A stretch of DNA of 64,000 bases from Eledone cirrhosa (lineage: Eukaryota): assembly GCA_964016885.1 (NCBI GenBank), contig OZ024743.1:120280001-120344000 (forward strand), written 5' to 3'. The position numbers were made by a program, and so were the translations under genes. Every line of letters begins with the position of its first letter. Positions within the stretch are counted from its first letter, which is position 1. Shown here piece by piece: positions 6,171 to 63,798 of the stretch. The notes below the pieces were generated by a model. That model made no database searches. It was not told the origin of the DNA and saw only the letters and a program-made list of their open reading frames with translations.

Positions 6171-6670
6171 AAATTGTCAAACAATTTCAATCTTATTAAG
6201 GTTATCTCCATTGGTTGATTAAAACAAACATAATTTAATGTCCCACAGCAGTTTTAATTGACTAATTGCAAGAACAGTTTCTGTTGCTCGAAGTTCTTCT
6301 TCACCATTGCCCACTTATTCTTTATACATTTGTAATGTTATTTAGGTATATATGCATATGATTTAATAAAACTTCTTTTAAAAAATTGTAATACTTTAAC
6401 GTATTTATATTTAGTATAGAGAGCTCTAGGCTGAGGTATTTCCTCTCAGCAATATTGTTGATATAAACTAATACTATTTTTGAAGCTTCAAGCAATATTT
6501 AAAGCTGCAATGCACGAAATTATAAAGTTTAATGTTTATATGAGATTTCCTTTGTTACTTTCAGACAAAAGACATAAGTGAAAATAACATATTAAATGCA
6601 GTTTCTATTTCTATTTGCATAAATAATATTATTTTTACATGAATATTATTATTATTATCTTTGACTATAA

Positions 6671-16248: not shown

Positions 16249-16929
16249 CATCATCATCATCATCATCACCGTTTTACGTCCATTCTTCCACACTAGCATG
16301 GGTTAGACGGGTTGTTCTGTTGTGGGCTGTGCCAGGTCGGGTGACCTTGTCTTGCTCATACGGGAACTGATTTGGCTTGATTTCTACAGCTGGATGCCCT
16401 TCCTAACACCAACCTCATTTACAGTGTGGGCTGGGTGCTTTTTTGCCGTGACACCTCCACGACCACTTTGTAGTGGGAGGGGATGGGAGCATATTGTCTA
16501 TATGCTTCAGCGTCAGCTTGTTCCCATGGGAAGTCGGGTCTTCTGTATTACTGCGTGATGCCAGAGGTCACGGTCCTGTGTCATCGCTTTTGAGAGGTGC
16601 AATTGGGTAAGGTCAGCTTTTATCACCTCATCCCAGGTCTTCTTGGATCTCCCCACTCTATAGCTTCCATCGATTTTTAGTGCTCTGCACCTTTTTATGC
16701 ATCACATGTTCATACCAACGCAACCTCCTCTCCTGCACACAGCATTTGATTCCTCTTATGCTCAGTCCTTCTCTCAGTTTGTTTATGCTTTGCCGTTTGC
16801 ATATATTACTATTACACATCCATCGGAACATGCAAGTTTCGTTTCTTTCTAATCTATGCAAGTCTTCTACACGCAGCGCCCAGGTCTCACTCCCAGGTAA
16901 CATTGCTGTTCGTATACACGCATCAAACA
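16249..16929 (-). mobile_element. RTE LINE 3' fragment with (TGA)n tail
   Basis: DACIRTAMLPGSETWAL...ERRLRWY, homologous to the C-terminus of ORF 19115-21157. Confidence 0.9.
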
Positions 16930-45847: not shown

Positions 45848-45985
45848 TGTTTTATGAATAGTATGTCTGTTAGCAACAGAATTAATTATCACTGGTTGTT
45901 GTAATACATTTTAAAAATTATGTATGTATGTATGTATGTATGTATGTATGTATGTATGTATGTATGTATGTATGTATGTATGTAT

Positions 45986-46185
45986 GTGTCAGGTCACCAG
46001 TTGGTGCTACTGGTAACATGTATTCCAGTACAACCCGTCCCATGGTCGGGTCGTTGGCGACTAAACTGGCAACCCTACCAAGGTTTCTTGGTGAGGAGGG
46101 TGACTTTGAACATCCTGCAGGACTAAAAACAAAGCCTGTCAAAGGGCAAAGGAGCTCATAAGGTCAATGGCCATCCAAAATCACC
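45986..46185 (-). repeat. Unclassified ~200-bp interspersed repeat next to (CATA)n, probably a retroelement 3' UTR
   Basis: Paralogues at about 46653-46850 and, inverted, 63805-63923; shared GCTACTGGTAACATGTA.CCAGTACAAC. Confidence 0.7.
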
Positions 46186-46429
46186 GGGAGAGATGACCCC
46201 CTTAGCCTTTGTCAAGGCAGAATTCTAGGAGAAGGAAAACTCTGATATAACACCTGCAACTCTGATGGTATCCAATGATGTTGACTTGTTCTTCTTTTTG
46301 GTAAATATCATCTTGGTTAAGAGAGTGGGACTGGCTTTGTGCAGTGCCTTTGCTGACTATAAAAGCTTCACGGCACAGGCATTGCTTTATATCTGGAGAT
46401 CTCTCTGCACTTGTCATCACAGGGTACAA

Positions 46430-46652
46430 TGGGCCCAGCACTATGTGTCAGTAATTGTCACAAGTGTAGTGTTTGTACCAGAGTTTTCAAGTCGCTGGCT
46501 GGACTAAAAAGTCACACTCGTTCAGCGTATCGATAGGGGTTCTCCTACATGGATATAAAGTAGTGGCCGTACTCGAAAACGAGTTGGCAGCCACCATGTA
46601 TGTATGTATGTATGTATGTATGTATGTATGTATGTATGTATGTATGTATGTA
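46430..46652 (+). mobile_element. 3' end of a BovB-like RTE with C2H2-like finger and (ATGT)n tail
   Basis: CSVCTRVFKSLAGLKSHTRS* matches the end of ORF 62895-63362; terminal GGCC.TAC.CGA.AACGA...GGCAGCCA.C-(ATGT)n as at 63749-63798. Confidence 0.75.
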
Positions 46653-46964
46653 TGGTAGTGTCAGGTGACTTCTGAGTGCTACTGGTAACATGTATCCCAG
46701 TACAACCTGTCACATGGTTGGGCCGCCGGCGACTAAGCTGGCTACCCCACCAAGCTTGCTTGATAAGGAGTGTGACTGGACACTCTGCAGGATGAAAAAC
46801 AAGACCTGACAAAGGGCGGAAAAACTCACTAGAGTCAACGGCCATCCAACAATGTGTATATGTATATACTGTGTGGGTGTATAAATGTATATATGTGGGT
46901 ATATGTGGAATTGGTTGCATGTAAGTGTGTATTTTTATTTACTTATTTTATTATTATTATTATT

Positions 46965-49746
46965 GTTTTTAATTTCTTTCATTATTGTTTCTGAGATATA
47001 TGCCGAGTGTCTTCCCGACACCTAGGGCAAATAAATTCACAGTGTGCATTGGTAAGCCAGTCAATACAGCACATTAATTATAATGAAAAAAAAAAAAAAA
47101 AAAAAAAAAAACCGTATACACATATACACATGTGCATATGCATATGTAAATACAAGGAGGGATATCAATCTTACAGAGATAGTGCTCTTCTCGATACGTG
47201 TGCAGTACCAGTCAAAACAATTTTTTGCACCTCGTGCAGAGAGGGTAAACCAGGAATCATTAGCAAATATTGTTCTGTTCCTTTCTTGATCATTCCCAGT
47301 CCTCCCACAATCACTGGTATTGTAACTGCCTTGAGGTACCACATTTTCTCAATTTCAATAAGCAGATCTTTATAATTTCGTAGTTTGTCAAATTCTTTTG
47401 CCGCGTTATTGTGATCACATGCGATGCTCATATCTATCAATAAACATACCTTATTATGTTGATCGTTTACAATGATGTCAGGTCTATTTGCTTTTATGGT
47501 CCTGTCAGTATGTACAGGAAAGTCCCAGAGAATTATTACTTTTTCTCCTTCAGTTACAGCCTCATGGTGATGATTGTACCACTTGTCTTCAGCTTTGATT
47601 TTGTAATGCCGACATATTACCCAGTGTAGATATTGGCCAACTCTGTCATGTCTATATTTGTATTTTACTGGTGCTAAAATTTACACCCAGAGACTAAGTG
47701 ATTCACTGTTTCAACCTCAGCATTGCAGAATCGGCACTTTGGGTTTATTCGGTTTCTCATCACATTGGCCTAGTAATTACGAGTCAATAAGCTTTGATCT
47801 TGGGCAGCTAAGATGAAGCCTTCACTCTCCGCCTTTAGCCCTGAACTACGTAGCCACTGATGGGTGTGCTTTTGGTCAACATCAGCCTGTTTGCTACGGG
47901 CCACATATTTACATGCAGAGGTTTCTGCTCCCAATTTGATGCTAATTGTCCTTGCCCTTTTGCTTTTGCCAGTGATTTTATGTGCCTAGCAGCATCAGTT
48001 GCAACAGTTTCTTTAGTCTGTCCAGCCTGGGTATCAAGCATGAGATCAGTAGCATATTTTTTGCTTTCCTTCAAGATAGAATGAAGCTTCTTACTTCTTT
48101 CATGCTTTTCAACAAGTTTCAGCATACAGTCATTAGTTGTTTCAAGGTATTTGGCCAGTCCAATGATGGTGGTCTTGTAAACAAGTTCAAATTGGATCAG
48201 GCCACGGCCTCCTTGAGTTCTAGGAAAGTAAAGACGATCCACATCTGCTTTTGTGTGGTGCATCCTATTACAGGTCAGTAGCTTACGGACTTTGGTGTCG
48301 ATTCTTTTGATTTCACTCATATTCCAGTTCAACACACCGAAACTATAAGTGACAACTGGGACTGCCAAAGAATTTATGGCTAGCACCTTGTTACGAGCGT
48401 TTAGTTCATATCTCAGAACTGCACGTACTCTCCTGTAACATTCTTTCCTTATCCTCTCTTTCATACTTGCATGCTGTATGCCAGAGCCCTCATTAATCCC
48501 TAAGTATTTATAGGTTTGTTCCTGCTCAAGTTCCTTTATGATTGTTTCAGCATCCAATTCAACTGAGTCTGAGTTGACAAGCTTCCCCTTCTTGAAAGTG
48601 GCTTTTGCACACTTATCAAGCCCAAAACTCCATCCCGATGTCATCGCTAAACGTGTTTACTGTCTGCAAAAGGCCTTCCAGTTCGTCATTATCTTTGCAA
48701 TATAGCTTCAAATCATCCATATAAAATAGGTGGCTTATTTTTTTTTTGTCAATTCTATAACCGTACCCTGTTCTATTAAATTCGGATGTAAGGTGTATTA
48801 AAGCTATGCAGAAAAGCAAGGGTGAAAGTGAGTCACCCTGGAATATACCACAGTTGATATTTATATTCCTAGAGCACAGTACCCCAGTGGAATGAGACAA
48901 TTGGAGATTTGTGTTCCATAATGACATATTGTGTTTCAGGAAGTTTGAGATCACAGGTGAGATTTTGAAGATGTCCAGTGATTTCAGAATCCATGAGTGT
49001 GCTATGCTGTCAAAGGCTTTTTTATAATCGATCCATCCAGAACTGAGATTTCTGTGTTTATTATGACAGTTCTCAAGGATCATACGATTAATCAAAAGTT
49101 GATCTTTGCAACCATATGAACCTCGTCGGCACCCTTTTTGTTCAATGGGGAAAAGATTGTTCTCCTCCAAAAACACGTATGCTTTTTCCATGAGAATAGA
49201 GGTTAATAGTTTATAAGTGGTGGACAAGCAGGTTATGGGCCGATAGTTTTGGGGATCTTTGGTTTCGTTGTTCTTTGGTAGAAGGTAGATAATGCCACTT
49301 GCTATCCAATCAGGTGTAATTTTTGGATCTTTCATAATTCTATTAAACAGCTTGACCAATATATTGTGAGTGCACAGGAGTAAGGAAATCCAGAAATTTG
49401 GCACCCTGTCTTTACCAGGAAATTTCCATTTATGAGATTTATTGAGTGCTGTCCTTAAGTCCGCTATAGAGATGTCTTCCCATGCCTGTTCTTCTAAATT
49501 TGTGTACGATTTTTCCAGACGACTAATCCAATCTACATTAACATTATATGTCTTCTCATCACTCCAAATCTTACTCCAGAAGTTTTCAACTTCTATATTA
49601 ATTTTTCTTCCCTACTTCTCTATAAAATGGATGAGAACAACTTATTTTGCCTGTAGAAGTTGTTTCGCTTCTCGAATCTACGAATTCGTTGGGCTTTTAC
49701 TTGGACTTTTGTTTCAGAGATTCTTTTGTTGAAACTATTGCTTCTT
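46965..49746 (-). mobile_element. 5'-truncated, frameshifted R4/Dong-like RLE retrotransposon, family B
   Basis: RT (NYRPITCL, EQKGC, WIDYKKAFDS, QGDSLSPLLF, YMDDLKL), GGRGL, CCHC remnant and RLE C-terminus. (TTA)n at 46948-46964 and from 49747. Confidence 0.9.
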
Positions 49747-49780
49747 TATTATTATTATTATTATTATTGTTATTATTATT

Positions 49781-49927
49781 CCTTGAATCTCAGTCATTGA
49801 TGTTGGTTAACTGGAAAGTCCGTTGGATTGAATATCAAGCCACTACCTGCAGCCTCAGATATTCAGGACGTATCGGAGGGTTCTTGCTGTTCCAAGCAAG
49901 CATGCCTTTTGAAGCGTTCCAAAAAGC

Positions 49928-49929
<2 letters not shown>
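49781..49929 (-). mobile_element. R4/Dong-like family A, ~150-bp 3' fragment
   Basis: Nearly identical to 56315-56463; TTA repeats on both sides. Confidence 0.95.
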
Positions 49930-49966
<37 letters not shown>

Positions 49967-49978
49967 GTTATTGTTATT

Positions 49979-51218
49979 CCTTGAATCTCAGTCATTGATG
50001 TTGGTTAACTGGAAAGTCCGTTGGATTGAATATCAAGCCACTACCTGCAGCCTCAGATATTCAGGACGTATCGGAGGGTTCTTGCCGTTCCAAGCAAGCA
50101 TGCCTTTTGAAGCGTTCCAAAAAGCGTGAAGGGGCCGATTTTCTTTAACCATCCCTGGAAACCTTTGGAGATAGTCCCCAGTGCGCCTATGACAATCGGG
50201 ATCACTTTGACTTCATGGCAGTTCCAAATCCTTTTCACCTCCCACTTTAGGTCCTGGTATCGGTTAATTTTCTCCCTCTCCTTCTCTTGCACTCTCGTGT
50301 CGAACGGGCAGGCCACATCCACAATCAGGCACGATCTTTTTTCTTTGTCCACAACCACCAGGTCAGGTCTATTGTGTTCCAGTTTTTTGTCCGTCTGTAT
50401 CCTAAAATCCCACAACACCTTCACCTGACTGTTCTCCATCACCGCCTCTGGCCTATGCTCATACCATTTCTCAGAATGTGGTAGATTGTTTACTTTGCAC
50501 AGGTGCCAGTGGATCACCCTGCCCATCACATCGTGTCTCCAGCCCTTATAGTGGGTCTGGGCTAGGTGTTTACACTCGGACACAATGTGAGCCACAGTCT
50601 CCTCTCTCTCTCCACAGATCCTGCACAGTGGGCTAGCCTCCTCCTTGTAGATATGGTGCTTCAACCACTTCGTTTTGAGGGCCTGCTCCTGCGCAGCCAT
50701 TAGCATTCCTTCTGTAGCCTTTTTGAGGTCTCCTCTTCTCAACCAGTTCCATGTCTGTGGATCTCTAAATTCAGTTTTCTCAAAGAAGGTACTATGAAGG
50801 GATTTTCCCTTAAGGCTGCTCTTCCTCCTTGATGTTATTTCCTCCTTGGGTATCCCCTGGCCTACTGTCCCCTCCTTCAGTACAGCTCTGAGCATTGGCT
50901 CCTTACTATAGGTCACGTATTTGTATAGGTTGTTTTTCTCCATCTGAACACAGTCCTCTATGCTGATAAGACCTCTTCCACCCTCAGATCTCCTTAGGTA
51001 GAGTCTATCGACATCACTCCTCTTGTGGAACATGTTGTAGATAGTCAATAGCTTCCTAGTCTTCCTATCCATTTCTTTTTGTTCAGCAACATTCCATCTC
51101 AGAATTCCCGCACTGTACCTAATAATAGACACAGCTCGGGAATTTACTGCGCTTATGGCATTTCTGCTGTTCAGATGTGACTTCAATACGCTCCTTACTC
51201 TCCGAATGTATTCAGTTC

Positions 51219-51220
<2 letters not shown>
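49979..51220 (-). mobile_element. R4/Dong-like family A, 1.24-kb 5'-truncated copy
   Basis: ORF 50053-51186 differs from the matching part of 56389-57927 at one visible residue (GIPK versus GISK). CRIC..H...C, RHD, PDLVV..DVACP motifs; TTA repeats on both sides. Confidence 0.95.
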
Positions 51221-51254
<34 letters not shown>

Positions 51255-54200
51255 GGCGACCTACGTAGTAAATCGTATCATCGTGAGCTCCGCAAAGGTT
51301 TGTTATTTTCAGTTGTTTAATATTGCCATTCATGGAAAATTTTTATTGTTAACATTGATTTCTGAAAAGGACACTCAAAAATATTGGGGCCTTGAGCCCC
51401 AAATTTAAACTTTTTATAATTATCAAACAAAACTTTTTCTTTAAAAAATAATGGATGACTCAGATTCACTCCTTCCTCACAATCCAACACCTCACACCGA
51501 CACCACAATTGTAAATATTGCTACGTTTGCCAACACTGGAATTGTAAGCAGTAGCAATATTTTAAATTTGTCTCAGGCAGACGTTCATTTCCCGCCATTA
51601 CCAATGACTGCAGGTGTTAAAGCCGCCACCACCACCACCAGCACCGCGACATCCCCCCCCCCCCCCCACCACCACCACAACGACAACAGAAACAAAAGAA
51701 AAAAATAAATTAACTCATGATATCGAAATGAATTCAACCAAAATGAACTCTTCCACACCGAACACCACTGACGCCACCACCACCACAACTGAAACTAAAA
51801 TTAACAATAGCAAAAATAACGATAATATCAACAGCAACAATGAAATTAAGAAAACTACCCTGAGTTTTGCTAGAGTAGCAAAAACGTGCGAAGCGATCCA
51901 GGTAACTCAGGAAGAATTAGACGAAGCCAAAGGAATAGTAAAGAAAGATGGGTACAGGGTCAGCCTCACTCCCCACCCATTTGGTACATGTGTGGGCAAA
52001 AAAAACCCCACATCAGACGTAGGCAGAAGTATGGAACCGTGGATGTGTTCTTTGAAACACCAGAGGAGGCCAGAGAACACTCCATGGCCCCATTAAGAAG
52101 TGACGACTTCACACTCGTCCCAAGCTATTGTGGCCAGAGACTCGTGAAGATCAAGGTGACCCACGTTCCACCGGCCATCGAAATTCCCTGGCTAATGGCT
52201 GCCGTCCTCGCCGGCATCGAGGCCAACACCAAAATAATAGAAATAGCAAAAGAAAAGCAGGAGAACTGGTCCGGATCTGGGTTGGAGCTCCTGATCCAAG
52301 CGGACGATAAAAGCATTGAGGAGATCCCAGAGGTAATAGACCTCACTGATGGCAGCCACCTCACCGTAATCGTCGGGGGCAGAAGACCTAGGTGTGTCGT
52401 TTGTGGTGAAGGAACCCACCTAAGGGCTTTCTACCCTCAGGCTAAAAGGTTGAGGCCACCTCTCTTACCCACCCCAGTGACTCAACCATCAACACCACTA
52501 GCAGCAGAAATAGCAGCAACAACTGTAGCAGCAACAACAGAAGCAACTGTAACAGCAACAACCCCACCAACAGTAGCAAAACCAACACCACCACCACACA
52601 ACGCCCCAGAACTAGCACCAGCGCCTACACCATCCACCACGCCACAACCAAAACCAACGCCTGTGGAGGATTTTACACTCCCCGGCTTATCGCAACTGGA
52701 GACAGATTGTGACGACGAGGAGTGGGAAACGGTATCAGGAAAAAAGAAAAAAAAAAAGAAACCAAAAAAAGAAAAAAAATCTCTTCCTTCCCCCTCAAAA
52801 AACAAAATACAGAGGGAAACAAATAAATTATCGAACAAGAAAGTTAAGACAGATATGCCACCATCCACACCAGCATCATCAACCCCATCACCACAAACAT
52901 CAACACCATCACCATCATTAACCCCAACACCACCATCACCAACACCACAAAAGTCACCAAAAAGCGTAACAGAAACAAACCCACAACAAACGCAAACAAA
53001 ACAAAACAACCAAAACGATACACACTACACAGCATTAAATTTGAACAACAAGCAATTATTGCACTACATGCAACACAACACCAGCATCACAGAAAAAGAC
53101 TACATAACAACCCCAAAGTTCACACCACCTCCACACATACAAATCACTCGCATCACACAGAAAACGTACACGACACTAAAACAAAAATTCCCCAAAGATA
53201 TCGGAGACTTCCGACAAACACTCTCCAGGAGGAATTATAAGGACATCCTTCCGGAGGAGGCCACAAGCAGTGAAAAGGATGGACAAACCATCCTTCCTCT
53301 ACGAGAAGTAAGGTAAGTGGTTTTTCCCATCTTTTCCACTCCATTTCAACATGACCTCACTCAGAATAGGCAGCATAAATGCGCGTGGTTGGGGTCGCCA
53401 TGGAAGCAGGGCCACCTGCTCAACGACCACAGGTCACTAAACATAGATGTAGTGGCCATCAGCGAAACCAGAATCTCCGAAGCACGGGCCTTCTCACCGA
53501 TCTTCGGCGGCTACGATGTGTACGCATCTCCCAGCCGTCCGGGATCGGGTGGGGTGGGGGTGGGGTGGGGGTGGGGGTGGAGGGGGGAGGGGGGAGGAAT
53601 TGCTGTGCTTTTTCGGAGAGGTTTGGATTTCGCCATACGGGCCATCTTCCTGGACCCAGAAGGTAAGTTGGTGGTGCTAGACGTGACCAGCGGAGACGGG
53701 CAAGCTATCAGGCTAGTGGCCGTCTATGCCCCGACAGGAGCAGGGCGGCCTGATTTCTTCCGGCGTCTGGAGACCTTTCTTGGAACGTCCCGCTCTTTAG
53801 TGTTAGTGGGCGACTGGAACGGGATCTTAGATGCACGCTGGGACTGTGTGGGATTAGCGGATAGGGGAGGAGGGTGCAAGAGCCTCACCAACCTGCTCAG
53901 GCGTTTTGAACTGTCTGACAGGTACCGATTGGATTTCCCGAATGTGCCAATGTGGACTCGGACAAATCGCATAGGGTCATCCAGATCATATCTAGATAGA
54001 GTATTTTGTAGAGAAATAGATAGGTCTAGGATAGGCTGTCCACAATTCAAGATAGTCAGCTACACGGACCAATAGAGCAGAGGGAGAATTAGTTAGAAAA
54101 TTAGACGAGGCGCTTAGCAAAGGCATCGCGACCGACGTACTTGCGGCGAAATTGGCCCTTGACCAATTCTTCAATGCAAAGCACGAAGGCTGCGTTGTCA

Positions 54201-56030
54201 GAGCTAGGGTGCGTGCTCTCAGACACGAGGGAACGAAAGCCGTTCAATAGGCCCGAGTGGCGGAGGCGCGTCGTGGAAACAAAGCCACGATCCGGTCTTT
54301 GGTTGACCACGACGGGCGCATGCTACTCGATCCCGGGCAAATGTGTGAAGCTTTTCAGCGACACTTCCCTCAGTTGTTCGGGGGCAGCGGCGGGCTGGAT
54401 CGTGGGATGGACTTTAGTGTCTACCTCGACGGACTGCCCCGGCTCTTGGCCACTTGGCCAAACACATCAAGGTGATCGGCACTACACTAAGAGAATACGA
54501 AGCGGTGACAGGAGCAATGATCAGCCAGGAAAAGTCAGTGGGCCTGCAGCTCGGCACCTGGAGAGGCAGGTCCATGCCGTCCAACAGCGTCGTCGGGCGC
54601 TGGACGGAGGGACCAGTTAAATTGCTCGAGGTCTGGTTCGGTCCGCATCTCCAGACGGACAAAAACTGGGACGAGGTGACGAGCCGGGTGGCTTCTCTCA
54701 CCCAGAAATGGGCTGAGAGGAAGCTATCCCTGAAAGGTCGAGCGGAGGTGGCTAATGCGTATATCGCGTCCGTCATCTACTACCGCCTGACCATCGTACC
54801 TTGTCCTAAGCCCCGCCTGACTGCGCGGGAGCGTTTGCTCTTTCGCTTTTTGTGGAAGGGACGCGCTCCGATGGTCAGGCGGTCCATCTGCTGTCAACAC
54901 CCGCTACGTGGAGGGCTGGGAATGCCGTGGCTGATGATGCGCAGACACGCGCTCAGGCTACGACATCTCCACCTCTTCCTCGACGGCGATCAGGTGTGGT
55001 CTCCGTTTGCTAGACGCGTCTTTCCCCAGCTCATCTCCTCGACGGAGCTGCAGTCCTGGGTCAAGCGAAGACCGAGAGAGAGCGCTTGGAGACTGGAATG
55101 TCTTCAGGCGCTCACAGCCCTCGACCAATCGGGCAATGTGATCGGTGGAAACTCCACCTTGGCGTTCTAAAGAGGATTAGTGGAGGGGAAGAGCGACGAC
55201 ATACTTGGGAAAACTCTAGGCGTCGACGAAAATCAATTAGCTAATCTCTTCGGAAGAACTTTCGGGCTGGGGCCTATGGACAACTTCCAGAAATCCCTGA
55301 CCTGGAAGTGCTACCGAGGAGCTTTGCCAGTTCGGGATAAACTATACAGGCATGGAGGTGCCGTCTGCCGGGCATGTCCGAGATGCGCGCAGGGCGACGA
55401 AACCGTCCTGCACGCACTCGTCCAGTGTCCGAGCATTGCTGACTTGAGGGTTTATGTCGAACACCTGCTGTCGCGTGTAGGACGGATCCAGCTATCAGCT
55501 GAGTCCATCGTGAGGATTGCCCCGCCCTCTTCCTTTAGCCGGGAAGGGCAGGCAGTTTTTATCTGTCTGGTGGCCATGGCGAAAGAGATAGTATGGTGGA
55601 CACGTTTGAAAGGGCTGAAGACGAGCACTTACCTCTTCGGTGATGCCCTGATTAACTTTTTCAAATTTCATTTAAAAAGGAAAATCAGGGTAGAAAGGGA
55701 AGTGCTCTCTTCCCAGCATTTTGTTGAAAGATGGGTGAGAGAGGCAAGAATAGCCCGAGTGAATGGGCCTACTCTGAGTATGTGTCTGTAAATTAAAAGT
55801 GGAACACTGGGAGAGGGCACTTGCCCTGGTGGTCAGGGTCACTGTGGCTTTTTAATGGGGATGTCCCTCGGAAGTCTCCCCCCTATTGGGGAATTTTTTC
55901 ATTGTTCTATTATTACATCCTCTGTTTCTTGTTTTTTACACGCAGAAATGCCCATTTGTACCGTCCTGTATTGTCCTGTACTGTCCTTAATGTCTACTTT
56001 ATGTAAACCCTTGTGGTTAATAAAGAAATC
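51255..56030 (+). mobile_element. Tx1/L1-clade LINE with both ends retained but the RT core deleted
   Basis: Frameshifted ORF1 (51451-53316; T/P-rich, degenerate CxxC...H knuckle). ORF2 starts at about 53351 with an APE endonuclease (GSINARG, SETR, VYAP, GDWN, YLDR, YTD). C-terminus has GGLGMP and CPRC..ETVLHALVQC, ending at 55791. No YADD. Confidence 0.9.
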
Positions 56031-56258
56031 ATTATTACATCCTGTGTTTCTTGTTTTTTACACGCAGAAATGCCCATTTGTACCGCCCTGTATTGTCCTG
56101 TACTGTCCTTAATGTCTACTTTATGTAAACCCTTGTGTTTAATAAAGAAAGCCTTATTATTGCCATTGTGCACTTTTACTCGACCTTATTGTAAACCCCC
56201 ACTGTCCCTGTCTTTTTATTGTCCCCTACATGTCGGCCCTTGTGGCTAATAAATGAAA

Positions 56259-56260
<2 letters not shown>
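56031..56260 (+). mobile_element. Two additional short Tx1 3'-end copies in tandem
   Basis: Termini CCCTTGTG..AATAAA(T)GAAA at about 56150 and 56260, each followed by (T/A)TTATT. Confidence 0.75.
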
Positions 56261-56302
<42 letters not shown>

Positions 56303-56314
56303 GTTATTGTTATT

Positions 56315-59300
56315 CCTTGAATCTCAGTCATTGATGTTGGTTAACTGGAAAGTCCGTTGGATTGAATATCAAGCCACTACCTGCAGCTTCAGATATTCAG
56401 GACGTATCGGAGGGTTCTTGCCGTTCCAAGCAAGCATGCCTTTTGAAGCGTTCCAAAAAGCGTGAAGGGGCCGATTTTCTTTAACCATCCCTGGAAACCT
56501 TTGGAGATAGTCCCCAGTGCGCCTATGACAATCGGGATCACTTTGACTTCATGGCAGTTCCAAATCCTTTTCACCTCCCACTTTAGGTCCTGGTATCGGT
56601 TAATTTTCTCCCTCTCCTTCTCTTGCACTCTCGTGTCGAACGGGCAGGCCACATCCACAATCAGGCACGATCTTTTTTCTTTGTCCACAACCACCAGGTC
56701 AGGTCTATTGTGTTCCAGTTTTTTGTCCGTCTGTATCCTAAAATCCCACAGCACCTTCACCTGACTGTTCTCCATCACCGCCTCTGGCCTATGCTCATAC
56801 CATTTCTCAGAATGTGGTAGATTGTTTACTTTGCACAGGTGCCAGTGGATCACCCTGCCCATCACATCGTGTCTCCAGCCCTTATAGTGGGTCTGGGCTA
56901 GGTGTTTACACTCGGACACAATGTGAGCCACAGTCTCCTCTCTCTCTCCACAGATCCTGCACAGTGGGCTAGCCTCCTCCTTGTAGATATGGTGCTTCAA
57001 CCACTTCGTTTTGAGGGCCTGCTCCTGCGCAGCCATTAGCATTCCTTCTGTAGCCTTTTTGAGGTCTCCTCTTCTCAACCAGTTCCATGTCTGTGGATCT
57101 CTAAATTCAGTTTTCTCAAAGAAGGTACTATGAAGGGATTTTCCCTTAAGGCTGCTCTTCCTCCTTGATGTTATTTCCTCCTTGGATATCCCCTGGCCTA
57201 CTGTCCCCTCCTTCAGTACAGCTCTGAGCATTGGCTCCTTACTATAGGTCACGTATTTGTATAGGTTGTTTTTCTCCATCTGAACACAGTCCTCTATGCT
57301 GATAAGACCCCTTCCACCCTCAGATCTCCTTAGGTAGAGTCTATCGACATCACTCCTCTTGTGGAACATGTTGTAGATAGTCAATAGCTTCCTAGTCTTC
57401 CTATCCATTTCTTTTTGTTCAGCAACATTCCATCTCAGAATTCCCGCACTGTACCTAATAATAGACACAGCTCGGGAATTTACTGCGCTTATGGCATTTC
57501 TGCTGTTCAGATGTGACTTCAATACGCTCCTTACTCTCCGAATGTATTCAGTTCTTAACAATTCCTTCATTTTTTTGTTCTTTATGCCATCAGCCTCCAG
57601 AACGCCCAAATACTTGTATCCTTCCTCAGAGTCAATATCCTTTATCATCTCACCTGTTGGTATCTGGATCCCGTTACTTCTGCTCAACCTACCCCTCCTC
57701 ATCACAATGACTCCACATTTACCAATACCAAACTGCATACATATATCACTGCTGAAAATACGGACAGTGTCAACAAGCACATCCAACTCCTTCTCACTTT
57801 TCCCGAAGAGCTTAAGATCGTCCATGAAGAGGAGGTGATTGATGGTAAGCTCTCCCCTTCCCAACTTGTATCCTGCTCTCACTTTTCGCAGCATAATGGT
57901 CAAGGGCATCAGGGCAAGGACAAACAACAGAGGGGACAGGCTATCTCCCTGGAAGATACCTCTCTTTTGATCTTCACGCTTCCCAAGGATACTCCAGTTG
58001 ATGTCAACTCTGTCTCCCAGGACCCCATACTCCTGCCCAGCAACTGTCTGATGTTATCTGCCACCCTGAAGATCTCCAGGCTTTTGGTGATCCAGGAATG
58101 AGGCACCATGTCAAATGCCTTTCTGTAGTCTATCCATCCCATGGCAAGATCAGTGTGTCTCCTCCTGCAATTCCCCATTACCATCTTATCAATAAGCAAC
58201 TGGTCCTTTGTACCACGTGACTTCTTTCGGCATCCTTTCTGTTCGTCCGGCAACAAGTTGTTTGTGTGGAGGTGATGGTAGATTTCCTCAGACACAATGC
58301 TCGTCAACAGTTTCCACATTACGGGCAGACATGTGATAGGTCTATAGTTGGTAACATCATTACCCTTGATTCGGTCTTTCATTATCAGAACTGTGGTACC
58401 TTTTGTCAACCACTCTGGCACCTCACCCGACACCAAGCAGTCATTGAACATGGCCGTCAGCTTCGGGTGGAGGGATGTTAAATGTTTAATCCAATACCCC
58501 TGCACACCATCTGGGCCTGGTGATTTCCAGTTGGTTAGTTTTTTGGCTTGCCCCTTAAGAGTTTCAACTGTGATACTCAAATCAGTCTGTTGTTGTGCCT
58601 GCTCACCGATCTCCCTCTGTACTGTCTCAATCCACCCTGCCTGGGCATTGTGTCTAACATCCTGCTCCCATATTCCTCTCCAGAATGTTTTAGCTTGTTC
58701 CGCCCCAGGGATCAAGTCGTTGCCTCTTTCTTTCCCCTCAAGCTGTCCAAACAGCATCTTCTGGTTGTTGTCGAACATGCGGTTCTGTTTATACTGACTG
58801 ACTCTGTTCTCGTATCGCCTGATTTTGGCACTCTTTGCTACAATGCGTTGCTTCAATTCCTCTATGATAATATTTAGCTTTTTACTCCTAGTTTTGTATT
58901 TTATTTCCAGTCTATTTTTAGTGCCTATGTTTTTTAGTGTCCCATTCAGTAGTGACTCAAGCTTTCCTATGTCATTTCTCATTTCCCCGATTTGCCCACT
59001 CAGTCACTTCTTCCACCACGGCTCTGCTCTTTCTTGTCTGTTGTTTCCTCTCGCTTTTATACCAAGTAGTTTCCTCACCGTATTTGCTGTTGCTTTGAGG
59101 ATATTGTTGCACTGGTGAAGACTCCTCGCCTCAAGGTATGGGATGACTTTGTTTACCTTAGCTGTTGTTTCTTTTAACTTTTTCCTGTCTACAAATCTTA
59201 GGTTCATAGGTCTCCCACTATCATTGTTCAACTCATCTACCACTAAATTTAGGATGTCAACCGAATCTTGTCCTAGCCCGTCAGCATTCATCTCCTCAGT

Positions 59301-61185
59301 GGCCGTATCTCTGTTCCAGGTATTATTTATCTCAGTATTCAGATCATTGTCTGCTTCGGGTGGTTCCTCCGTTCTCAGGACCTCCTCACCTTCATTTCCC
59401 GCCGGCTCGCTTGTCTGGCATACTACACCCGCCATCTCCAAGCCATTCTCTCTGCTCAGTTCCTCCAGTTCCAGCTCGCTTATCCACCCATTAGTTCTTA
59501 TTACCCGAGCCTGACCGGCCAATTTTTGTTCATCTAATTTAAATAAACCAATCTCGTTCCAGATGTTATGCATCCGTCTCCTGTAGCCCCTCTCCTTGGG
59601 GTTACTTTTCAGGTAGCATTGCATAACAGTTCTATTCAATTCTTTCGTCCAGTTGGTTCTGGCCCCTTTCCTTCTTCTTCTTCCTCCAACATCAGCAGTA
59701 TTTGGTTGACAGTCAGGTTCCTGCTGCTGAGCCAGGGGGCACCTGTTGGGTGAGAGTCTGTCACATGACGTTCTAGTCTCCATTTCACCGTTATTCGAAC
59801 TGTTTATGTTCGATATTTAAACACTCTTATCGAGGATTGGCGAATGTATGTTTACATAGCCATCTGTGGATCCGCCATCCCACTTGGCCCTTGTGTGGCA
59901 TTATCACCACGCTGTATACGGACACACATAAAAAAACAAACACACGGGCAGAAAGGGCCCCAAAAATGAATAAGCATAAGTTTCATTGTAATGTAGTATT
60001 CGAATGTCTGACTTAGTTTTTGTTTTTTAAGTTTTACTTTTTCCCCCCTCTTCTTCTCTGTCCGTCCGCCTGCTTCTCTCTTCATTCTTATTTTCTTTAC
60101 GTTTTTGGGGTTTCTTTTTTTGTTTTTGTTTTTCTCTGTTTGTTTTTCTCGTTTTTTGCTGTTGTTGCTGTGCTGCTGTGGTTTTGTTGTTTGTTTTTTC
60201 TTTTTTCTTTTGAGTCTATCTATATATTTTGATGCCTTCCTCTTTGTTAGTAGTAGGAATTCTATAATGTGGAAGTGGCAGCCAGCAGAGACTGGCGGCG
60301 TTGGCGATACTGAGACAGTGGTGGTGGTGATGTCGATACCGAGGCAGTGGTGGCGGTGATGCGACCGTATTACTGTAGTGATGGTGCTGTAGCGGTGGCA
60401 GCAGCAGTGAAGGAGTCAAGGGGTGGTGGCGGCGGTGATGGGATAGTGGTGGTAATGATGGCCGCAGTGAGCGGTGGCGGTGAAGGTGAAAATGCTGTTG
60501 TGTTTAGTGTACACAGATGATGGGGTGGGTGGTGTATCTAGTTTCTGGTGTTGGTGAGTTTAGCTGTCCTATATAGTGTAGCCAGAGGAGAGGAGGGGGG
60601 GGGGTTCTTCTTCTTCCATTTATAGCCATTTTATTTTTTTTTTTTTTTGGATATACAGTGTACAATACAAAGTTGAATATTTGAATATTTGAGCCGTATT
60701 ACTGTAGTGATGGTGCTGTAGCGGTGGCAGCAGCAGTGAAGGAGTCAAGGGGTGGTGGCGGCGGCGATGGGATAGTGGTGGTAATGATGGCCGTAGTGAG
60801 CGGTGGCGGTGAAGGTGAAAATGCTGTTGTGTTTAGTGTACACAGATGATGGGGTGGGTGGTGTATCTAGTTTCTGGTGTTGGTGAGTTTAGCTGTCCTA
60901 TATAGTGTAGCCAGAGGAGAGGAGGGGGGGGGGGGGGGTTCTTCTTCTTCCATTTATAGCCATTTTTTTTTTTGGATATACAGTGTACAATACAAAGTTG
61001 AATATTTGAATATTTGAGTCTTATACCAATATATTTTGGGTCCGAATTTTTTTGGGCTCAAGCCGGGTGCTTTACGTAGCATTTGTACTAAGAGTTGTTA
61101 TTTCACAAATGATTTAAATATGTTAAAAATTCAAAACTTACGGGAGCGATTTCATGACCTCCGTCACCTCGTGCGTCTTCTTCCC
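56315..61185 (-). mobile_element. Apparently full-length R4/Dong-like RLE retrotransposon, family A
   Basis: ORFs 59004-59783, 57909-58982 and 56389-57927 join into one ~1130-aa protein (R4-type N-terminal WT..N..YRRRM..EQKLA.Q motif, RT with FMDD, CCHC, PD-D RLE). It is broken by one in-frame TGA and one 2-bp slip; (TTA)n on both sides. Confidence 0.95.
60365..61018. repeat. Tandem duplication of about 327 bp in the R4 5' region
   Basis: Units 60365-60693 and 60694-61018 are near-identical apart from homopolymer lengths. Confidence 0.95.
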
Positions 61186-61217
<32 letters not shown>

Positions 61218-61359
61218 TTTATATTTACTATTATTATTATTATTTATATTTTTTTTAATTATTATTTATATTTTTTTTTTTTTACTTTTACACTTTTAAC
61301 CTTTAAACTTTTAAATAACTTTTTTTCAAATGTTTAATTGCATCTTTCTACCTATTTTA

Positions 61360-63798
<2,439 letters not shown>

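Follow-up and report, generated by a model that had tools for sequence, protein, structure and literature searches.

How do retrotransposons with unrelated endonucleases come to lie end to end, each kind in its own orientation, within one simple repeat? The question is raised by a 64-kb stretch of the Eledone cirrhosa genome (contig OZ024743.1; G000:C4:120280001-120344000; hereafter the window, whose coordinates are used below), in which a single (TTA)n microsatellite holds seven retrotransposon pieces between 46946 and 61245. Four are R4/Dong-type elements with a restriction-like endonuclease (RLE) on the minus strand, and three are Tx1-type elements with an apurinic/apyrimidinic-like endonuclease (APE) on the plus strand. 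Having searched the 3.0-Gb assembly for related copies, we consider it likely that R4 and Tx1 elements occupy (TTA)n in fixed opposite orientations and nick opposite strands, leaving or, in R4-A, lengthening the repeat so that the next element can land.

The assembly was searched with five element ends, 40 of 259-2096 candidates being scored for each; the best 30 were kept and the window's own copy dropped (n=29). An end was scored as bearing a tract when at least 12 bp of TTA repeat adjoined it, a rule that random positions pass in 1.4% of cases. Tracts were present at 29/29 R4-A 3' ends and 28/29 R4-A 5' ends, at 25/29 R4-B 3' ends, and at 27/29 and 29/29 of the Tx1 3' and 5' ends, respectively, with the tract on the opposite strand at none of the 145 ends. 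Where 5'-truncated copies had their break within the fetched locus, TTA stood at the break in 12/12 R4-A and 15/22 R4-B copies, and by eye in 6/9 truncated Tx1 copies; of the three Tx1 misses, one is joined directly to R4, one has a plain flank and one is interrupted internally. Because repeats that adjoin random 5' breaks are not explained by a tail, these data support TTA as the insertion target and not only as a 3' tail. The possibility that 5' TTA is part of Tx1's own head was ruled out by the truncated copies and by three families with different 5' ends, all of which sit at TTA. A preliminary description of the window had proposed that orientation follows clade, and with flanks and orientation tabulated over genomic copies this holds as a fixed opposite polarity at (TTA)n: TTA adjoins the 5' junction of most copies, and orientation is not random.

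We then compared what lies across each tract with a background sample of 1.2 Mb, which was made up of twelve fixed-position blocks of 100 kb each and contained 114 TTA tracts (228 sides). A known element stood across the tract in 98/145 cases. In 96 of these it kept the same polarity; of the other two, one is a weak match and one a 5' inversion. R4 or ATT-type Tx1 elements were found there in 78/145 cases compared with 28/228 background tract sides (odds ratio 8.3, p 1e-17), which bears out the earlier proposal that the site keeps accepting insertions. Trains were present at 8/8 loci picked as likely trains, the longest (C14:27.778-27.812 Mb) having ~11 members over 34 kb; they occur genome-wide, and the window locus is ordinary for this genome. 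Some other trains also contain direct element-to-element joins with no tract, which are probably later deletions. In raw restriction site-associated DNA sequencing (RAD-seq) reads from a separate sample, the Tx1 3' end continues into (TTA)n in 3771 reads, and a Tx1 end followed by TTA and a truncated Tx1 was read at two joints, in 123 and 113 reads. Since such joints were found, train-type junctions exist in raw reads, as distinct from the window locus itself. A different arrangement was seen at C3:330.069-330.077 Mb (L227-L228), where a pair of copies from a third ATT family of Tx1 lie in facing orientation; their 3' parts are scrambled, and each has a TTA tract at its 5' end.

Tract length suggests that the repeat is also extended. 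In young R4-A copies the median TTA tract was 60 bp at the 5' end versus 33 bp at the 3' end (p 0.0012), whereas background tracts had a median of 15 bp and a maximum of 57 bp (n=114). As 16/29 of the R4-A 5' tracts exceed that maximum, and so are longer than any background tract, R4-A insertion may well lengthen the tract at its 5' junction. Extra letters were present at 10/29 of the full-length R4-A 5' junctions, about half of them resembling a re-copied element end, and would fit slippage or template jumping. Runs of (TTC)n, (GTC)n or (ATC)n fused to TTA tracts were also seen at element junctions (L001, L005, L024, L088); the R4-A 5' end contains a TTC repeat, and slippage may seed some of these fused runs.

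Many such landing pads are supplied by a 190-bp short interspersed element (SINE) with an ATT tail, which is present in trains in the Tx1 orientation. It gave 172 matches in the 1.2-Mb sample. Three tandem copies with a period of 180 lie at 419-964 of the window; in tandem arrays at other loci, target duplications lie between the copies.

The same polarity recurs at other repeats. Tx1-type 3' ends in the 1.2-Mb sample bear either (ATT)n or (TATC)n, and in a tree of 40 ends of the second open reading frame (ORF2) a branch with 100/100 support holds 14 TATC and 3 degenerate-tail rows and no ATT row, with 18 ATT and 5 unclassified rows on the other side. TATC was present at 9/13 truncation points (by eye) and before 5/5 full-length TATC-group copies, and (TATC)n trains were found too. 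An RLE family ~37% identical to R4-A in the reverse transcriptase (RT) carries (ACAT)n at 19/19 of its 3' ends and 10/11 of its 5' ends, two of which represent one duplicated locus, and one of its copies joins a TATC-type Tx1 tail to tail. In the ATT/TAA and the TATC/ACAT system alike, then, the RLE sense strand reads the A-rich unit and the APE sense strand the T-rich unit. This rule, together with the genome-wide longer trains, the apparent 5' lengthening by R4-A and the SINE pads, goes beyond the preliminary description. A clue to the TATC sister group lies in the window itself, where a TATC-group Tx1 3' end is followed by (ATCT)n/(GTCT)n at 1136-1505.

Target-primed reverse transcription is the basis on which the nicked strands can be assigned. 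By this route the nicked strand would be TTA for R4 and AAT for Tx1, with the primer pairing with the repeat at the 3' end of the element RNA. If Tx1 also moves the SINE, the APE nick would, judging by the SINE sites, be 5'-AATAAT/R-3'. An L1-like staggered second nick would add ~5 units per insertion in a pure tract, and at the R4 5' junction further units could be gained by slipping or jumping of the RT on the repeat. We suggest a putative division of labour in which endonuclease preference picks the motif, and pairing of the RNA tail locks the strand and favours long tracts. With the repeat rebuilt on both sides the next element could land, giving a feedback.

Three other explanations were weighed, which concern different steps and are not mutually exclusive. 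One, which we think rather unlikely, is that tail pairing acts alone: the endonucleases would be loose, pairing of the RNA 3' repeat with nicked DNA would set both target and polarity, and the convergence would lie in the tails. Fixed orientation by itself cannot prove the convergence of endonucleases that had been proposed for the window, as RNA tail pairing fixes orientation equally well. The short-tailed SINE has a 5' tract of at least 9 bp in 33/109 copies (random 4%) and uses short ATTAT sites, whereas Tx1 lies in tracts of at least 18 bp in 29/29 cases; since the SINE lands at short sites, unlike Tx1, tail length may set the tract length needed for insertion, a hint in favour of pairing. 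Tail pairing alone would also suit the endonucleases of the ATT and TATC Tx1 groups, which are 55-60% identical with near-identical loop residues, the three R4-B copies that start at an internal ATTATT, and the internal priming at repeat-like RNA described for SART1 (PMC7265360). SINE target duplications point the other way. They were found in 31/85 copies (2% in a mismatched-pair control), are 9-20 bp long with a median of 15 bp, and start with ATT or AATT in 26/31; the preceding base is T or C in 31/31 and never G, by a method that cannot score A, which suggests a cut preference. Domain swaps between TRAS and SART likewise had the target set by the endonuclease (PMC7265360). A strict L1-like TTTT/AA site was ruled out, only the T/purine step being common with the SINE sites.

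A little less probable still is that insertion into TTA is real but without feedback, the tracts being passive sinks in open or tolerant regions and the long 5' tracts pre-existing. This would accommodate our use of young copies as anchors, background tracts that may have shrunk with age, and the regional clustering of TATC-group copies at C6:40.02-40.08 Mb, which point both ways there and are not confined to trains. It fits poorly with neighbours that stand directly across the same tract and are not merely nearby, and with tract length, as length-biased choice from the background predicts a tract of ~26 bp whereas the two tract sides at young truncated R4-A copies sum to 57-141 bp. Finally, that trains arose by unequal recombination, or are assembly joins across TTA tracts, is very improbable, for although the window locus is known from the assembly with no long read and its three R4-A copies are mutually 98-99.7% identical, the breakpoints of the copies differ (150 bp, 1.25 kb and full length), members differ in age (95-100%), trains lie on many contigs with different members, element-TTA-element joins are present in raw reads, and misjoins would lose the clade-specific polarity unless targeting were real.

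Several points weigh against the account that we prefer, in which R4 and Tx1 use opposite strands of shared tracts and leave them open to further insertion. No R4 or Tx1 neighbour was present at 92/114 background tracts. Taking the 30 highest-scoring of 259-2096 candidates gave young copies too much weight; the 5' tract was absent from 7/22 truncated R4-B and 3/9 truncated Tx1 copies, and also from several of the older R4 pieces found in the 1.2-Mb sample. Lengthening was borderline when the two ends of the same copies were paired (medians of 69 and 30 bp, p 0.052, n=12 truncated R4-A copies with both ends), and no 5' excess was seen in R4-B (16.5 vs 21 bp) or Tx1 (39 vs 39 bp). The link between the SINE and Tx1 is the likeness, by eye, of its last ~25 bases to the Tx1 3' end, and target duplications were measured on the SINE only, so that those of Tx1 and R4 are an extrapolation. 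When four read runs were compared with 51215-62400 of the window, no record spanned this interval and no empty-site joint was present among the joints listed; a search from the right flank for an empty allele met a repetitive flank with no unique anchor.

A broader reading, which we put forward tentatively and think somewhat less probable than an even chance, would treat these families as a niche system. The RLE elements would insert so that the A-rich unit is read on their sense strand and the APE elements would take the opposite strand, SINEs would seed short pads, the R4 RT would lengthen these at its 5' junction by reiterative, telomerase-like synthesis, trains of several clades and tens of kilobases would follow from this feedback, and the difference between ATT and TATC would reflect a recent switch of target.

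We assign the names R4 and Tx1 from element architecture and insertion target, since the homologs found carry no clade names. In R4-A, R4-B and R4-C alike, RT and a C-terminal RLE lie in a single ORF, and the sense strand reads (TAA)n at both ends; there are three or more TAA-targeting RLE families, with protein identities of only 35-60%. An intact R4-A copy elsewhere in the genome (L154, 1141 aa) contains RVT_1, no Exo_endo_phos, and a C-terminal CCHC and PD..D..K stretch; its best PDB matches are R2 proteins, whose RLE stretch is matched by its C-terminus at E 0.086. Intact Tx1-type ORF2s contain Exo_endo_phos, RVT_1 and zf-RVT in 3/3 cases, and their best PDB match is human L1 ORF2 (E 1e-52), ahead of R2, so that their sequences clearly place them in the L1 group. 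A zinc knuckle, CX2CX4HX4C, was found in 3/3 ORF1s from other Tx1 copies, and a PDB sequence search with the window's broken Tx1 APE gave 0 matches. In an RT tree our RLE and APE families were split at 100/100. No named animal Tx1 reference was among the homologs, a cluster look-up of 10 of them gave no names, and the nearest database proteins outside the Tx1 group are unnamed and ~40% identical. An Rfam scan of 46000-62000 gave only microsatellite-driven or chance matches, with no ribozyme at E<=5, and a strict descriptor found no 5' hepatitis delta virus (HDV)-like ribozyme in the R4-type elements; by eye there is a conserved core and a 6-bp helix with one compensatory change, and the P1 helix is weak. 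A short hairpin motif, CTTGAGCCC, as well as CTACGTA, is common to the 5' untranslated regions (UTRs) of R4-A (61045-61080, minus strand) and Tx1-A (51385-51410, plus strand), though these families are unrelated, and was absent from the other families checked. In three R4-B copies (L128, L145, L146) the last 13 bases are missing and the element is joined at an internal ATTATT to a SINE tail, forming a short palindrome, from either internal priming or later deletion. One read run with another organism label (X1) contained Tx1-like sequence at 90-95% and little R4-A, and the two families may have different histories.

Within the window, the order, strands and sizes of the seven pieces match those first described. 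The train opens with a (TTA)n tract at 46946-46967, followed by a 5'-truncated RLE-type R4-B (46968-49745, minus strand) with RT, a CCHC region, PD..D..K and broken frames. A tract at 49746-49780 separates this from a ~150-bp R4-A 3' end (49781-49928, minus strand), to which other genomic copies are identical, and another at 49929-49972 precedes a 5'-truncated 1.25-kb R4-A (49973-51219, minus strand), which has 4 differences from the full copy over 1240 bp. The head-to-head junction between R4 and Tx1 is the tract at 51220-51255, after which comes a Tx1-type APE element of ATT family A (51256-56030, plus strand) with a zinc knuckle in ORF1 and with APE and a C-terminal zf-RVT in ORF2. Two 3' fragments follow on the plus strand, one of family A (56038-56152) and one of a second ATT-specific Tx1 family (56162-56260), then the tail-to-tail Tx1/R4 tract at 56261-56308 and a full-length R4-A (56309-61185, minus strand) whose 5' end is GGGAAG. 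The right-edge tract (61186-61245) fades into AT-rich sequence until ~61270. Perfect (TTA)>=4 tracts of the train lie at 46948, 49746, 49929, 51220, 56261, 61186 and 61229, a single one lies outside it in the 64 kb, at 6644. The plus strand of the window has no perfect (TAA)>=4 tract.

Other details of the preliminary description needed amendment. All junctions had been given as the same trinucleotide repeat, which stands for the (TTA)n tracts; the two inner junctions, ATTATTA at 56031-56037 (7 bp) and TTATTATT at 56154-56161 (8 bp), are not microsatellites, and ATTATTA, which also occurs inside the Tx1 3' UTR, is microhomology and not a tract. That no element interrupts another is correct for the window, and other trains have the direct tract-less joins noted above. 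The Tx1 copy is not whole, as against a natural full copy ~230 bp are missing near 54071 and ~790 bp near 54455, the latter deletion removing the RT core. Nor is the R4-A termed full intact, its frame being broken by a stop at 59004-59006 and shifted near 57960; its 5' UTR has a 340-bp internal duplication that is present in other copies too. The third Tx1 piece, called Tx1-related, is 99% identical to copies of the second ATT family, itself ~74% identical to family A over ORF2. Ages differ within the train, best other copies being ~95% identical for R4-B, 96% for Tx1 and 99.6-100% for R4-A, by which the R4-B appears to be among the older members and the full R4-A young. The fragment at 56038-56152 differs from the neighbouring Tx1 copy at 4 sites, 2 of them polymorphic in the family, and because it has these differences and no private variant in common with that neighbour, a separate insertion seems likelier than a local duplication. 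The latter is not favoured, on weak grounds, as the family shows no linkage between the two polymorphic sites.

TRAS1 and SART1, both members of the R1 clade, differ from the present elements in that both are APE-type and use telomeric repeats only, whereas here the endonucleases are unrelated and the targets scattered. They are alike in being two elements at one repeat in opposite directions, in their case the Bombyx (TTAGG)n (PMC7265360). Utopia, an RLE element, and Keno, a Tx1-clade APE element, target the same U2 small nuclear RNA (snRNA) gene in parallel, with tandem insertions noted (PMC4640811); theirs is a fixed gene site with identical 3' flanks, unlike the dispersed repeat here, and the available text of that paper describes neither opposite-strand sharing nor mixed trains. 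Dong targets TAA microsatellites (PMC3812793) and has been assigned to the R4 lineage; TAA precedes its 5' end, and it has an HDV-like ribozyme that self-cleaves at the TAA junction (PMC3774820). The present families resemble the Dong elements of Bombyx mori, Anopheles gambiae and Biomphalaria glabrata in their TAA target, with (TAA)n here on the sense strand at both ends; unlike Dong, they share tracts with APE elements, have a relative on (ACAT)n and, in R4-A, seem to lengthen the 5' tract. Microsatellite targets named in running text for the Tx1 clade are TC, TTC, TTCC and TTTC, and Kibi, Koshi and the crocodilian (TTCC/TTTC)n families are likewise microsatellite-specific Tx1-clade APE elements (PMC4494074), whereas the targets here are (ATT)n and (TATC)n. 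A literature search that largely left subscription papers and Repbase outside found no ATT- or TATC-specific Tx1, no ACAT-specific RLE family and no mixed RLE and APE trains, which is weak evidence. Targeting of TAA by Dong, convergence of RLE and APE elements (Utopia/Keno) and opposite-strand sharing (TRAS/SART) are already known, and what appears to be new is the ATT and TATC targets, a polarity that follows clade beyond a single repeat, and pads that seem to grow.

It is the system, not the single locus, that gives these findings their value. Tx1 on ATT versus TATC, and RLE elements on TAA versus ACAT, are natural pairs for asking whether endonuclease or RNA tail sets the target, and the ATT/TATC sister families, if they do reflect a recent switch of target, might reveal whether the target of a long interspersed element (LINE) is programmed by a few residues of the endonuclease or by the RNA tail. 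If R4-A does lengthen its target, retrotransposons would grow microsatellites while inserting into them, creating self-feeding safe harbours, one means by which a genome rich in repeats could grow while its genes are spared. Octopus repeat papers report Dong-R4 and L1-Tx1 as abundant or active, with no targets given in the available text (PMC13282606, PMC8967140, PMC9115989). An octopus Dong element was judged inactive from short-read calls (PMC9115989), and Dong-R4 was the LINE group with the most recent insertions in another account (PMC13282606); insertions between repeats in trains are hard for short-read callers, and trains could explain this gap.

Other repeats of the window show related features. 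Just left of the TTA train, at 45920-46850, lies a second small train in which a 608-bp element and a partial copy stand between (TATG)n tracts. This element has TATG tails in 11/19 of its 3'-complete copies in the 1.2-Mb sample, is found in L291, L298 and L306 in a tail-to-tail join with the ACAT-type RLE family, and by eye resembles at its 3' end the end of the ORF at 62811-63362. That ORF belongs to a set of broken LINE-like ORFs at 61983-63362 on the plus strand, which we take to be RTE-like from their motifs and of which the first piece has no Pfam match. Lastly, (ATC/ATG)n tracts with similar flanks are present at 16249, 21754, 22802, 24313 and 25776, and the likeness of these flanks suggests another microsatellite-tailed element.

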